64,000 bases of DNA from Escherichia coli (GTDB taxonomy: Bacteria; Pseudomonadota; Gammaproteobacteria; Enterobacterales; Enterobacteriaceae): the NCBI RefSeq assembly GCF_003334785.1, contig NZ_QOWV01000001.1. One strand, written 5' to 3'. The translations under genes were made by a program, and so were the position numbers. The notes beneath the pieces are model-generated. The model was not told where the DNA came from. It searched no databases and saw only the letters and a list, made by a program, of their open reading frames with translations. Shown piece after piece: positions 35,863-51,288 of the stretch (its first letter is position 1; every line of letters starts with the position of its first letter).

Positions 35863-36615
35863 TCAGGCAACGTTACGCGTATGACCAGCAAGCTGGGCCA
35901 GCGCATCGTTATTTTCGATGGTGATGTATTTACCTTTGACTGCCAGCATGCCGCTTTTCTGGAAGCGACCCAGCAGACGGCTGATGGTTTCTACCGTCAG
36001 GCCCAGATAGTTACCGATATCGCCACGAGTCATCGTCAGGCGGAATTCACGAGGGGAGAAGCCGCGTTGGGCAAAACGACGGGACAGGTTGTAGATGAAT
36101 GCAGCCAGACGTTCCTCGGCATTTTTCTTCGACAACAGCAGGATCATGTCCTGATCGCCTTTGATTTCACCGCTCATCAGACGCATCATCTGCTGACGCA
36201 GATTCGGCATTTTACCGGACAAATCGTCCAGCGTTTCGAACGGGATTTCACATACCATCGAGGTTTCCAGCGCCTGCGCGAAGCTCGGGTGATGGCCGCT
36301 GCCGATGGCGTCAAATCCCACCAGGTCGCCTGCTAAATGGAAACCAGTGATTTGCTCGTCGCCTTGCTCAGTGATGGTATAACTTTTAATCGTACCGGAG
36401 CGGATGGCATAAAGCGATTTAAGTTCATCACCAGCCTTAAACAGCGTCTGGCCTTTCTGAATAGGCTTCTTCCGCTCAATGATATTATCAAGCTGATCAA
36501 GCTCATGTTCGTTGAGTGTGAACGGGATGCAAAGCTGGCTGATGCTGCAATCCTGGCAATGGATAGCACAACCGCCAGACTGAATGCGCCGTATAATTCG
36601 CTTTTCCGGGATCAT
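35863..36615 (-). CDS. fnr: CRP/FNR-family oxygen-responsive global regulator FNR
   Basis: ORF track 35863..36672 (TTG-extended); start taken at [10 protein letters not shown]; N-terminal Cys cluster CAIHCQDC for the 4Fe-4S sensor. Confidence 0.9.
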
Positions 36616-36634: not shown

Positions 36635-36648
36635 TTGATATTTGTCAA
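36635..36648. promoter_or_regulatory. FNR-box-like dyad in the fnr 5' region (autoregulation site candidate)
   Basis: TTGAT-ATTT-GTCAA (consensus TTGAT-N4-ATCAA), 19 nt upstream of fnr ATG. Confidence 0.55.
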
Positions 36649-42738: not shown

Positions 42739-42745
42739 AACTGCA

Positions 42746-42840
42746 TAAAAAAATAGAGTCTGTCGACATCCGCCAGACTCTACAGTACACACAGCAGTGC
42801 ATCCGCGTCTTAAATCCGGCATTGTCTCCTCTGCGCCGGT
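42746..42840 (-). ncRNA. mcaS: small RNA McaS (IsrA)
   Basis: Minus-strand sequence ACCGGCGCAGAGGAGACAATGCCGGATTTAAGACGCGGATGCACTGCTGTGTGTACTGTAGAGTCTGGCGGATGTCGACAGACTCTATTTTTTTAT recognised from memory; ends in hairpin plus U-run; sits between abgR and smrA. Confidence 0.8.
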
Positions 42841-45117: not shown

Positions 45118-46122
<1,005 letters not shown>

Positions 46123-46168
46123 CAAAAGCAATTTTTCCGGCTGTCTGTATACAAAAACGCCGCAAAGT

Positions 46169-46182
46169 TTGAGCGAAGTCAA
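46169..46182. promoter_or_regulatory. FNR box centred about -42 of FnrS
   Basis: TTGAG-CGAA-GTCAA (consensus TTGAT-N4-ATCAA), 35 nt upstream of the FnrS 5' end; class II activation spacing. Confidence 0.65.
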
Positions 46183-46217
46183 TAAACTCTCTACCCATTC
46201 AGGGCAATATCTCTCTT

Positions 46218-46339
46218 GCAGGTGAATGCAACGTCAAGCGATGGGCGTTGCGCTCCATATTGTCTTACTTCCTTTTTTGAATTACTGCATAGCACAATTG
46301 ATTCGTACGACGCCGACTTTGATGAGTCGGCTTTTTTTT
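46218..46339 (+). ncRNA. fnrS: FNR-activated small RNA FnrS
   Basis: GCAGGTGAATGCAACGTCAAGCGATGGGCGTTGCGCTCCATATTGTC...GACGCCGACTTTGATGAGTCGGCTTTTTTTT recognised from memory; terminal hairpin plus U8. Confidence 0.8.
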
Positions 46340-46396
46340 GCCTGTTATTTATCAGCGTCTACCCTTTAAGAGTCCACCCAATGACCAGAGGGAAAT

Positions 46397-46570
46397 ATGA
46401 CGACACTTATTTATTTGCAAATTCCTGTCCCTGAACCGATTCCTGGCGATCCTGTTCCAGTGCCCGATCCGATCCCTCGCCCGCAACCCATGCCTGACCC
46501 ACCACCCGATGAAGAACCGATTAAATTGTCGCATCGTGAGCGTAGATCTGCGAGGATACGCGCCTGCTAA
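46397..46570 (+). CDS. 57-aa proline-rich small protein (absent from ORF track because under 60 aa)
   Basis: ATG at 46397 with GAGGGAAAT RBS-like spacer; encodes MTTLIYLQIPVPEPIPGDPVPVPDPIPRPQPMPDPPPDEEPIKLSHRERRSARIRAC; stop TAA 46568-46570; may correspond to the small gene ynaL, name not verified. Confidence 0.5.
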   Translation: MTTLIYLQIPVPEPIPGDPVPVPDPIPRPQPMPDPPPDEEPIKLSHRERRSARIRAC

Positions 46571-46599
46571 CTTTGCGTCGATGACCACGAGAATAGATT

Positions 46600-47973
46600 G
46601 TGACCGCTTTTTCTACCCTGAATGTTTTGCCTCCCGCCCAACTCACGAACCTTAATGAGTTGGGTTATTTAACCATGACGCCGGTGCAGGCCGCCGCGCT
46701 TCCGGCGATCCTTGCCGGAAAAGATGTTCGCGTGCAGGCGAAAACCGGCAGCGGCAAAACGGCGGCTTTTGGCCTCGGCTTGTTACAGCAAATTGATGCG
46801 TCGCTATTTCAAACCCAGGCTTTAGTGCTGTGTCCTACGCGTGAACTGGCGGATCAGGTGGCAGGTGAATTGCGTCGGCTGGCGCGTTTTCTGCCAAATA
46901 CCAAAATTTTGACGTTGTGCGGTGGTCAACCGTTCGGTATGCAGCGTGATTCGTTGCAACATGCGCCGCATATTATCGTGGCAACGCCGGGGCGTTTGCT
47001 GGATCACCTGCAAAAAGGCACGGTATCACTGGATGCGTTGAATACGCTGGTGATGGATGAGGCCGACCGCATGCTGGATATGGGATTTAGCGATGCCATT
47101 GATGATGTCATCCGTTTTGCGCCTGCATCTCGACAGACGCTTCTGTTTTCGGCAACCTGGCCGGAAGCCATCGCTGCAATCAGCGGACGAGTGCAACGCG
47201 ATCCTTTGGCGATTGAAATTGACTCAACAGATGCTTTGCCACCCATTGAACAACAATTTTATGAGACATCCAGCAAAGGCAAAATTCCTCTGTTGCAACG
47301 GTTATTAAGCTTGCATCAGCCATCCTCTTGCGTGGTGTTTTGCAATACCAAAAAAGATTGCCAGGCTGTCTGCGACGCGCTGAATGAAGTAGGGCAAAGT
47401 GCATTGTCATTACACGGCGATTTGGAGCAACGCGATCGCGATCAGACCCTGGTACGTTTTGCTAACGGTAGCGCCCGTGTACTGGTCGCGACTGATGTTG
47501 CTGCGCGTGGTCTGGATATTAAATCGCTTGAGCTGGTGGTGAACTTTGAGCTGGCGTGGGACCCTGAAGTTCATGTACATCGCATCGGTCGTACAGCTCG
47601 TGCAGGAAATAGCGGTCTGGCGATCAGTTTCTGTGCTCCGGAAGAAGCACAGCGGGCCAATATCATTTCTGACATGTTGCAGATAAAACTTAACTGGCAA
47701 ACGCCGCCAGCTAATAGTTCCATTGCGACGCTGGAAGCAGAAATGGCAACGTTGTGTATCGATGGCGGGAAAAAAGCCAAAATGCGCCCGGGTGATGTAT
47801 TAGGTGCACTGACAGGAGATATCGGGCTTGATGGCGCAGATATTGGCAAAATCGCCGTGCATCCGGCGCATGTCTATGTCGCGGTCCGTCAGGCTGTTGC
47901 TCATAAAGCATGGAAACAGTTACAGGGCGGGAAGATTAAAGGAAAAACGTGCCGGGTGCGGTTATTAAAATAA
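46600..47973 (+). CDS. dbpA: DEAD-box ATP-dependent RNA helicase (23S rRNA hairpin 92-specific)
   Basis: 457 aa ORF with GTG start; motifs GSGKT, DEAD, SAT, HRIGRTAR. Confidence 0.9.
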   Translation: MTAFSTLNVLPPAQLTNLNELGYLTMTPVQAAALPAILAGKDVRVQAKTGSGKTAAFGLGLLQQIDASLFQTQALVLCPTRELADQVAGELRRLARFLPNTKILTLCGGQPFGMQRDSLQHAPHIIVATPGRLLDHLQKGTVSLDALNTLVMDEADRMLDMGFSDAIDDVIRFAPASRQTLLFSATWPEAIAAISGRVQRDPLAIEIDSTDALPPIEQQFYETSSKGKIPLLQRLLSLHQPSSCVVFCNTKKDCQAVCDALNEVGQSALSLHGDLEQRDRDQTLVRFANGSARVLVATDVAARGLDIKSLELVVNFELAWDPEVHVHRIGRTARAGNSGLAISFCAPEEAQRANIISDMLQIKLNWQTPPANSSIATLEAEMATLCIDGGKKAKMRPGDVLGALTGDIGLDGADIGKIAVHPAHVYVAVRQAVAHKAWKQLQGGKIKGKTCRVRLLK

Positions 47974-48101: not shown

Positions 48102-49037
48102 TTATTTCACTTCAACCACATTCAGCCGTAACTCATCCAACTGATTTTCATCTTCTTCTGGCTGCCAGCACGCCGGTTGTAGTGGGATCTCTTCGCGATC
48201 AAACGCCAGATCACCCCCGTTAACCACTTCAGAACCGTGGGTGATGCCTTTGAAATCGAACAGGTTGGTATCGCACAGATGCGACGGCACCACATTCTGC
48301 ATCGCGCTGAACATCGTCTCGATACGCCCTGGATAACGTTTATCCCAGTCACGCAACATGTCAGCAATCACCTGACGTTGCAGGTTAGGCTGTGAACCGC
48401 ACAGGTTGCACGGAATAATCGGGAACGCTTTTGCATCGGCAAATCGCTGAATATCTTTCTCGCGGCAGTAGGCCAGCGGACGAATAACGATATGTTTGCC
48501 ATCATCGCTCATCAGTTTCGGAGGCATACCTTTCATCTTACCGCCGTAGAACATATTTAAGAACAACGTTTGCAGGATATCGTCACGATGGTGACCCAAC
48601 GCGATCTTCGTCGCCCCCAGTTCCGTTGCGGTACGATAAAGGATACCGCGACGAAGGCGAGAACACAGTGAGCAAGTGGTTTTGCCCTCTGGAATCTTCT
48701 CTTTCACGATACCGTAAGTATTCTCTTCAACAATCTTGTACTCAACGCCCAGCTTTTCAAGATACTCGGGCAGAACGTGTTCCGGGAAGCCCGGTTGCTT
48801 TTGATCGAGGTTAACAGCCACCAGCGAAAAATTGATTGGCGCGCTTTGCTGCAAATTGCGCAGAATCTCCAGCATGGTATAGCTGTCTTTACCCCCGGAG
48901 AGGCAAACCATGATGCGATCGCCTTCTTCAATCATATTGAAGTCAGCAATGGCTTCGCCCACGTTACGACGCAGACGTTTTTGTAATTTGTTCAGGTTGT
49001 ATTGTTCTTTCTTACTAATTTCTTGATTTTGCGACAT
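48102..49037 (-). CDS. ttcA: tRNA 2-thiocytidine(32) synthetase (PP-loop ATPase)
   Basis: 311 aa ORF with PP-loop SGGKDS and Fe-S CxxC motifs. Confidence 0.9.
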
Positions 49038-49213
49038 TTAAAAGCGACTCAATTCGTTATATGGCATCAGAAGAGTATGCGTCATGCCGGAACGCCCAGC
49101 ATAAGAAATCTGATATAAAAAACTGTGGCGTGTATGGTACGGATTAGAGGGGAAAATGTCAGCACATTTGCGAAATGAATCAAAAAGCCCGCAGCAATGT
49201 GCGGGCGTTAGTG

Positions 49214-49729
<516 letters not shown>

Positions 49730-49752
49730 TTAGATCAAAGGAGGAAGAATAA

Positions 49753-49780
49753 GCAGAAAAAGCCCGCCATAACAGCGGGC
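49753..49780 (-). terminator. rho-independent terminator after ompN
   Basis: On the minus strand: stem gcccgc/gcgggc followed by TTTTTCTGCTT, immediately past the ompN stop. Confidence 0.65.
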
Positions 49781-49788
49781 AGGAGGAT

Positions 49789-50922
49789 TTAGAACTGATA
49801 AACCAGACCTAAAGCGACAATATCATCGGTAGAGATGCCATTGGCAGCGTAGAAGCTGTCATCTTCATCCAACAGGTTGATTTTATAGTCAACGTAGGTG
49901 GACATGTTTTTATTGAAATAGTAAGTCGCGCCAATATCGGCGTATTTAACCAGATCTTTATCATCAACACCTGCCGGGTTGTCTGCACCACCCGCAGCGT
50001 GCAGGTCACGGCCTTTAGACATCAGGAAAGAGACTGCCGGACGCAGACCAAAATCAAACTGGTACTGTGCAGTGACTTCAAAATTCTGGGTTTTGTTTGC
50101 CACAGCATAATCGCTGTCGCCAAACGGGGTCATATTACGCGTTTCTGAATACATGGTTGCCAGGTAAATATTGTTAGCATCGTATTTTAGCCCAGCAGTC
50201 CACGCGTCTGCTTTATCACCACCCGCCGCAGTATGGTTAACCTGGTCATTGGTGCGGTCAGAAGAGGTGTATGCCGCACCAGCGCTAAAGCCCATGCCTA
50301 AATCATATGTTGTGGAAAGACCCCAGCCGTCACCGTTTTCATGGCGAACATCACGTCCGTTGTTGGTGCCTTCCTGACCATTACTGGCTCCTTCGTTGTT
50401 ACCTTGATACTGCACCGCGAAGTTCAGACCATTTACCAGACCGAAGAAATCAGTATTACGATAAGTCGCGACGCCATTGGCTCGACCAGTCATAAAGTTG
50501 TCTGCATTGGTATAAGAGTCACCGCCAAATTCAGGCAGCATATCGGTCCAGCCTTCGATGTCGTACATTACGCCATAATTACGTCCGTAATCGAAAGAAC
50601 CGTAATCTGCAAATTTCAGCCCGGCAAATGCCAGACGGGTCCATGACTGGTTTTTTGAAGATTCAGTGTTGTTTGCCTGAATATTGTATTCCCATTGCCC
50701 GTAGCCAGTGAGTTGATCGTTAATTTGGGTTTCGCCTTTAAAACCCAGACGCGCATAGCTCTGGTCGCCATCTTTCGCTGAATTATCAGAAAAATAATGC
50801 AGGCCATCAACTTTGCCATACAGATCTAATTTGTTGCCGTCTTTATTATAAACTTCGGCTGCATGTGCAGCACCTGCGGCGAGCAGGGCAGGAATTAAAA
50901 GTGCCAGTACTTTGCTTTTCAT
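49789..50922 (-). CDS. ompN: outer membrane porin N (OmpC/OmpF family)
   Basis: 377 aa ORF, signal peptide, C-terminal ...VYQF. Confidence 0.9.
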
Positions 50923-51149
50923 TGAATAAATCCTTTAGTTATTTTATTTGCCTTTTATCCCCATTTCGGGGAGTGAAAACATCCTAAAGGAGAAGTTCAG
51001 TTAGCCGATAAATATCATTTGTTACGCCTTAAGTAAAACCTTAATCAAATAATTCCTCTGAAATGATAATAAGTCTGGTGAATGTATCGAAGATAATACA
51101 TACAAAATAAAAATTATACTTTTAATTTGCTATACGTTATTCTGCGCGG

Positions 51150-51258
51150 GTTATATGCCTTTATTGTCACAGATTTTATTTTCTGTTGGGCCATTGCATT
51201 GCCACTGATTTTCCAACATATAAAAAGACAAGCCCGAACAGTCGTCCGGGCTTTTTTT
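51150..51258 (+). ncRNA. micC: small RNA MicC (ompC-targeting)
   Basis: GTTATATGCCTTTATTGTCACAGATTTTATTTTCTGTTGGGCC...AGCCCGAACAGTCGTCCGGGCTTTTTTT recognised from memory; terminal hairpin plus U-run; between ompN and pfo. Confidence 0.8.
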
Positions 51259-51288
51259 TTAGAATTGGATAATCCTTATCCAGAGCAT

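Follow-up and report, generated by a model that had tools for sequence, protein, structure and literature searches.

The question raised by this locus is what the interval between zntB and dbpA holds and how it is transcribed. In a stretch of 64,000 nucleotides of Escherichia coli DNA (hereafter the window), a reading made from the sequence alone had placed there the small RNA FnrS, with a class II FNR box upstream of it and a GC hairpin followed by eight U residues at its end. Alignment of the window to the Rfam covariance model of FnrS (RF01796) recovered positions 46218-46335 with a score of 134.8 bits (E = 4.4e-24) against a gathering score of 60, and the match ran through model positions 1-119 of 119 without truncation. 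The covariance-model search that had been proposed as a check of the sequence-only reading, with the lack of an Rfam hit counting against it, gave a match far above threshold. The K-12 annotation points to the same element: fnrS (b4699) is a 122-nt ncRNA at 1409129-1409250 of NC_000913.3, which corresponds exactly, at a constant offset of 1,362,911, to window 46218-46339, and the sequence GCAGGTGA at 46218 is the start of the FnrS RNA body. Identity to E. coli K-12 MG1655 is 100% across window 46100-46420, as it is for many other strains, and a match to the fnrS region was found in 5393 of 5426 complete E. coli genomes. The other 33 were without such a match, and 6 of the 5403 fnrS-region matches in this genome collection were held by records labelled as plasmids.

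The 5' end (+1) was taken from the K-12 annotation and the numbering of the literature. The bases at G4/G5, C47-U48-U49 and U57-U59, after which published FnrS mutants are named (PMC8595263), fit +1 = 46218, and this agreement serves as an independent cross-check of the 5' end. From its sequence we read 46218-46339 as FnrS, an already known small RNA of E. coli; the reading is correct and the element ordinary and, since its sequence is identical to that of K-12, it carries no new biology. The window copy equals that of K-12 in sequence, in length, in its three-hairpin structure and in its FNR box at -42.5, and it likewise follows zntB and precedes ynaL and dbpA. There is no difference in the element itself, but the host genome nearby differs in having no Rac prophage after ttcA. 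We hold it to be nearly certain that fnrS combines an FNR-activated class II promoter with a 122-nt Hfq-dependent small RNA and its own intrinsic terminator, and none of the observations speaks against this. The presence, boundaries, family and K-12 identity of the element, the conservation of its box, -10 and structure and its complementarity to target starts were computed here; for the binding of FNR in vivo, the induction under anaerobiosis, the need for Hfq and the repression of targets we rely on the literature on the identical K-12 sequence.

Homologues were collected with the search pattern AAGCGATGNNCGNTGNNNTCCATA, which lies inside the RNA (in stem-loop 1), allowing one genome per species. 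This yielded at least 120 loci. Two matches in metagenome-assembled genomes (L041, cyanobacterial, and L060, Dechloromonas) were without the FnrS 5' end and were left out as chance matches of the pattern. Ten of the most distant homologues among the matches listed, which come from Yersinia, Serratia, Erwinia, Edwardsiella, Arsenophonus, Photorhabdus, Rahnella, Rouxiella and Izhakiella, all scored on RF01796, with 80.7-120.9 bits. Upstream regions were aligned without gaps and anchored on the invariant FnrS 5' end. From the matches listed, the promoter footprint comprises 114 distinct upstream sequences with enough flank, which belong to the Enterobacteriaceae, Erwiniaceae, Pectobacteriaceae, Yersiniaceae, Hafniaceae and Morganellaceae. 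The recount of the box comprises 115 homologues that extend far enough in either direction. The window is included in each set.

Table 1. Features of the zntB-ttcA region, in window coordinates
Feature	Position	Strand	Description and basis
zntB	45139-46122	+	K-12 annotation mapped to window ORFs
A-tract AAAAA	46153-46157	+	-65 to -61, just upstream of the FNR box
FNR-binding site TTGAGCGAAGTCAA	46169-46182		Centre -42.5, over the -35 region; sequence, footprint, published ChIP-seq
-10 hexamer CAATAT	46205-46210	+	-13 to -8; conserved G at 46204 directly before
FnrS sRNA	46218-46339	+	122 nt, from the G at 46218 into the U8 run; Rfam, K-12 annotation
Stem-loop 1	46218-46263	+	nt 1-46; almost invariant; Rfam consensus structure
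Target-pairing region CAUAUUGUCUUACUUCCUUUUUUGAAUU	46256-46283	+	nt 39-66; holds single-stranded linker nt 47-61; complement of a Shine-Dalgarno sequence plus AUG; U-rich
Stem-loop 2	46279-46304	+	nt 62-87; MFE fold and Rfam structure
Rho-independent terminator	46312-46339	+	Hairpin 46312-46331 (nt 95-114), U8 46332-46339
ynaL	46397-46570	+	57-aa proline-rich protein (21 Pro); K-12 annotation
dbpA	46600-47973	+	GTG start at 46600; K-12 annotation
ttcA	48102-49037	-	K-12 annotation

The FNR site and the promoter

The sequence TTGAG-CGAA-GTCAA at 46169-46182 agrees with the FNR consensus at 8 of 10 positions and has both the TTGA and TCAA cores intact. Given +1 = 46218, its centre falls between -43 and -42, that is, at -42.5, and the TTGAG-N4-GTCAA box is found where it had been described, about 42 bp upstream of the 5' end. 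In a genome-wide FNR ChIP-seq study of K-12, in which class II comprises sites at -41.5 ± 4, a peak with one FNR site at -42.5 was reported upstream of fnrS (PMC3688515); the class II geometry that had been claimed for the box falls within this published range, its centre being 1 bp upstream of the canonical -41.5. The same study grouped fnrS with the operons directly activated by FNR, although fnrS expression was unmeasured in it, the RNA being absent from the arrays and too small for the RNA-seq protocol (PMC3688515). The -10 hexamer begins 29.5 bp downstream of the box centre, the spacing that a -41.5 site would have with a hexamer at -12 to -7, and we infer that the geometry relative to the polymerase is canonical.

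Taken by itself, a box of this kind is not above chance. For the FNR consensus TTGATNNNNATCAA, a count of the window allowing at most two mismatches gave 47 sites (36.5 ± 6.1 expected), and the core TTGA-N6-TCAA, with 2 occurrences in the 64-kb window against 1.63 expected, is not rarer than chance. From a density of about 1.6 cores per 64 kb, the chance of finding one within ±4 bp of -41.5 for one given start is roughly 2e-4. Since the box is unremarkable alone, its support comes from position and conservation. Among the matches listed, TTGA-N6-TCAA is present at exactly -49 to -36 in 82 of 115 homologues, 20 further ones (Erwinia, Pantoea) have CTGA..TCAA and six have TTGC..TCAA, and the remaining box sequences are variants, some of them off by one base. 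In the footprint of the listed matches the box columns T-48, G-47 and A-46 are 89-99% conserved and T-39, C-38, A-37 and A-36 96-98%; at column -45, 77% of the homologues deviate from TTGAT, as does the TTGAG of the window. The comparison of about 115 species of Enterobacterales among the matches listed gives a clear example of a class II site that keeps its exact spacing to the -10 and to the start of the transcript, with drifting sequence in between. The assignment of 46169-46182 as the class II FNR site of the fnrS promoter is supported on these grounds, and its occupancy is taken from the literature on the identical K-12 sequence.

Given that CRP and FNR sites are related palindromes, and that CRP negatively controls fnrS transcription according to a review (PMC8139620), possibly through the same or an overlapping site, the palindrome could be read as primarily a site for CRP or another member of the CRP/FNR family, with the FNR dependence being indirect. 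The half-sites speak against this: they are of the FNR type (TTGA/TCAA) and not of the CRP type (GTGA/TCAC), and among the matches listed the FNR-type half-sites are kept in 82 of 115 homologues and GTGA in none. The FNR ChIP-seq data also place FNR on the fnrS upstream region (PMC3688515). We consider a primary CRP site very improbable and retain the class II FNR site as the preferred reading.

Downstream of the box, the motif GCAnnnT is found at -14 to -8 in nearly all homologues among the matches listed, with conservation of 99% at G-14, 97% at A-12 and 96% at T-8 in the 114 listed promoters. The -35 position (-36 to -31) is occupied by ATAAAC, which agrees with the consensus at 2 of 6 positions, and a scan of 45900-46700 with the sigma-70 consensus found no complete promoter. 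The poor -35 and the lack of a consensus promoter fit an activator-dependent promoter, though they are not positive evidence of one. Upstream of the box, the A-tract stands out in the same set: A is present in 75-92% of the 114 listed promoters at columns -64 to -61, with adjacent columns below 0.4 bits, and 60 of the 115 listed homologues have AAAAA, GAAAA or CAAAA at this site. It may be a candidate docking site of the C-terminal domain of the RNA polymerase alpha subunit, for which its position at a class II promoter is suitable; we found no description of the tract in the literature. The box, the -10 and the A-tract form three conserved islands amid drifting sequence in the 114 listed promoters, columns -30 to -25 and -80 to -66 of the footprint having less than 0.3 bits.

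Other class II FNR promoters, such as those of dmsA, narG, nirB and ydhY, provide a comparison. Like them, fnrS has a partial TTGAT-N4-ATCAA over the -35 region, no usable -35 hexamer, a weak -10 and a box centre within -41.5 ± 4. Their modal centre is -41.5, whereas that of fnrS is displaced by 1 bp away from the annotated start, a position shared by ydhY, whose centre is also at -42.5 (PMC3688515).

Structure and conservation of the transcript

The MFE fold, the centroid fold and the Rfam consensus concur on a succession of stem-loop 1, a CU-rich linker, stem-loop 2 and the terminator, and in all three structures nt 47-61 of the linker are unpaired. In the terminator scan the hairpin GCCGACTT/TGAT/GAGTCGGC was found to have 8 pairs, of which 5 are G-C, and a 4-nt loop, and to be followed by exactly eight T. 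The GC hairpin with U8 that had been proposed from the sequence is therefore present, at 46312-46331 and 46332-46339, respectively. Small RNAs usually bind Hfq through a 3' end of this type, a hairpin with a U tail.

The alignment on which we evaluated this structure comprises 97 sequences, 96 of them distinct, from among the matches listed. For the 32 pairs of the structure, 96.7% of the cells are paired in these listed sequences; shifting the 3' partners by 1-3 columns lowers this to 31-45%. Changes on both sides were seen at 8 pairs, a number reached in 0 of 500 shuffles. Most of this covariation is found in the terminator, where among the listed sequences the pair 109:123 is GC in 42, AU in 41 and GU in 10, and 110:122 is CG in 65 and UA in 28. 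The 15 pairs of stem-loop 1 are 99.9-100% paired in the listed matches, with compensatory changes at two of them (CG to UA three times, GC to AU once); its conservation is partly by construction, in that the search pattern sits inside it. The 9 pairs of stem-loop 2 are 97-99% paired in the same set, and two of them have changes on both sides; this stem-loop was absent from the RNAalifold prediction, and its paired columns are shown using the Rfam and MFE structure instead. As both stem-loops are near-invariant, they offer little covariation and weigh little either way. The fold energy of the RNA is not unusual (z = -1.67, with 14 of 200 shuffles folding equally well), and stability alone does not identify FnrS.

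The 5' end of the RNA contains an AUG at nt 9 (46226) directly after a Shine-Dalgarno-like AGGUGA, and the ATG-initiated ORF that begins there spans 46226-46369 (47 aa), which raises the possibility that FnrS has a dual function and encodes a small peptide as well. However, this ORF crosses the terminator, and the 122-nt RNA is therefore without a stop codon; moreover, AGGUGA abuts the AUG with no spacer between them. The frame is not maintained either: across the 115 homologues among the matches listed, the ORF can be as short as 1 codon or exceed 80 codons, and in these listed sequences insertions and deletions in the U-run shift the frame after about 17 codons. We rejected the small-peptide reading because the ORF is not conserved, and we give practically no credence to a coding role of what is better understood as a regulatory RNA.

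Target pairing and related small RNAs

FnrS is an Hfq-dependent small RNA produced on a shift to anaerobiosis under the control of FNR (PMC11572966), and its transcription is controlled positively by ArcA and negatively by CRP (PMC8139620). More than 30 mRNAs drop upon its pulse expression (PMC8139620), and 11 operons that belong to the FNR regulon indirectly, including gpmA, cydDC, chaA and adhP, have been ascribed to it (PMC3688515). Among individual targets, sodA, sodB and marA have been named (PMC8595263), later papers add grxD/ydhD, and the 5' UTR of iscR pairs with FnrS with the help of Hfq, iscR being repressed 13- to 16-fold (PMC11572966). The published pairing mutants fnrS-I (U57-59) and fnrS-II (C47-U49) lie in nt 39-66 (PMC8595263).

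We computed duplexes between FnrS nt 39-66 and the -35 to +15 regions of 28 genes, using 1000 random 50-mers of the window as background; predictions made with the whole of FnrS were set aside, as they produced long artefacts full of loops. Six reported targets (grxD, iscR, maeA, adhP, gpmA and sodB) form duplexes of -19.3 to -13.7 kcal/mol, and in every case the paired stretch includes the Shine-Dalgarno sequence or the AUG. All six fall within the top 1.6% of the 1000 random 50-mers, and they rank 1, 4, 5, 9, 10 and 11 of the 28. Five start regions that are not known as targets score as well as the reported ones, and the duplex test ignores accessibility. The test shows a linker that reads as an anti-ribosome-binding-site sequence, but it does not tell which mRNAs are targets. 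By eye, FnrS nt 44-54 (UGUCUUACUUC) perfectly complement GAAGUAAGACA, which runs into the iscR AUG, and nt 55-65 perfectly complement AUUCAAAAAAG upstream of maeA. The strongest of the 28 duplexes, ahead of those of the classic targets, is that of the grxD start region, at -19.3 kcal/mol, in which mRNA positions -15 to +6 face FnrS nt 39-58. The start codons of ydhP, galM and trmJ, which are not known as targets, also score well against FnrS.

These observations and the published work can be combined into a putative course of events. In the absence of oxygen, [4Fe-4S]-FNR would dimerise and bind TTGAGCGAAGTCAA at 46169-46182, and, as we infer for its contacts with the polymerase, FNR at -42.5 would substitute for the missing -35 and bring the sigma-70 RNA polymerase to CAATAT, the weak -10. 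Transcription would begin at the G at 46218 and end in the U8 run at 46332-46339, and the RNA would fold into two stem-loops and the terminator hairpin. The unpaired CU-rich nt 39-66 (for some targets also the 5' end) would then pair with the ribosome-binding site or the start codon of mRNAs not needed under anaerobiosis (sodB, maeA, gpmA, adhP, grxD, iscR, cydDC and others), and this pairing would block translation and lower mRNA levels. FnrS extends the FNR regulon at the post-transcriptional level.

Two other small RNAs resemble FnrS in parts of this scheme. RyhB, which is repressed by Fur, has the same arrangement of a global metallo-regulator controlling an Hfq-dependent small RNA that in turn represses many mRNAs, and it shares with FnrS the targets sodB, sodA, marA and the isc operon (PMC8595263). 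However, it is unrelated in sequence, responds to iron instead of oxygen and is controlled by repression, whereas FnrS is controlled by class II activation. NarS, which depends on FNR and NarL and derives from the narK 3' UTR, is like FnrS a small RNA of the FNR regulon that is induced anaerobically (PMC8139620), but it is processed from the 3' end of an mRNA, while FnrS is transcribed from a promoter of its own and its 5' end is conserved.

The genes around fnrS and elsewhere in the window

The order zntB-fnrS-ynaL-dbpA-ttcA is collinear with K-12 at a constant offset, with no insertions or deletions relative to the window ORFs. The sequence-only reading had recorded FnrS in order that the gap between zntB and dbpA should not be taken as empty. 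The presence of fnrS in the gap stands, but the description needs to be corrected in that the gap also contains ynaL, between fnrS and dbpA, the product of which has been confirmed by epitope tagging (PMC6001520). For bookkeeping, the zntB-dbpA gap holds a characterised regulator, FnrS, together with a verified small-protein gene, ynaL.

The zntB gene is a near-constant companion of fnrS, adjoining it in 114 of 117 homologous loci among the matches listed. In 108 of the 114 listed loci with a ZntB match it lies directly upstream on the same strand, and in these 108 it ends 73-140 nt before the fnrS +1. A terminator scan of window 46123-46217, from the zntB stop to the fnrS start, found no terminator-like site, and the fnrS terminator may also serve the zntB transcripts. 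This arrangement, in which the lack of a terminator-like site after the zntB stop (46122) makes read-through plausible, is what would be expected if FnrS were mainly a processed fragment of the 3' UTR of the zntB mRNA and not a primary transcript. Yet the FNR box and the -10 are conserved at fixed distances from the invariant FnrS 5' end, and FNR-dependent expression has been reported (PMC3688515, PMC11572966, PMC8139620). Moreover, fnrS retains its own box in Rahnella and Rouxiella, where its orientation to zntB is reversed, which indicates that zntB transcription is not needed for fnrS. We regard processing from zntB as highly unlikely to be the main origin of the RNA, and a primary transcript from the FNR-dependent promoter as the preferred one. 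In the Rahnella and Rouxiella loci (L029, L069, L085, L087, L114 and L120), fnrS and zntB converge, and the end of zntB lies 143-155 nt past the fnrS +1.

The near-universal linkage of zntB and fnrS, which persists despite the inversion of fnrS in Rahnella and Rouxiella, could also be viewed as functional coupling rather than plain inheritance, which we consider unlikely. If such coupling existed, read-through from zntB would give FnrS-containing RNAs that are independent of FNR, or would interfere with the FNR promoter, and zinc transport would be tied to an anaerobic small RNA.

On the downstream side, dbpA is the neighbour in only 40 of the 99 listed loci with enough flank. DbpA is a helicase that acts on the peptidyl-transferase-centre hairpin of the 23S rRNA. 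The ynaL gene ends 29 nt before dbpA, and one might speculate that the proline-rich ynaL serves as a translational leader of dbpA. Among the matches listed, YnaL was found by tblastn in only 12 loci, and the distance of dbpA to fnrS is kept in about 35. Just past the fnrS terminator, the block CGTCTACCCTTTAAG at 46355-46369 is near-unchanged in Citrobacter, Enterobacter, Klebsiella, Lelliottia and others, and it may be a promoter or leader element of ynaL/dbpA.

The window also contains the fnr gene itself, at 35863-36615 on the minus strand, about 9.6 kb from fnrS. The other exact TTGA-N6-TCAA of the 64 kb, TTGACAAATATCAA, is on the minus strand at 36635-36648, 20-33 bp upstream of the fnr ATG, a position that would be expected of an autoregulatory FNR operator. 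Beyond ttcA, the Rac prophage is absent (49037-51267): ttcA is followed directly by uspF, ompN, MicC and nifJ/ydbK, whereas K-12 has the 23-kb Rac here. Hence the strain is not MG1655, despite the 100% identity at fnrS. MicC itself was found at 51147-51267 on the plus strand (Rfam, 125 bits). A further small RNA, McaS/IsrA, matches its full Rfam model at 42745-42840 on the minus strand with 118.4 bits against a gathering score of 42, and lies between abgR and smrA, as in K-12.
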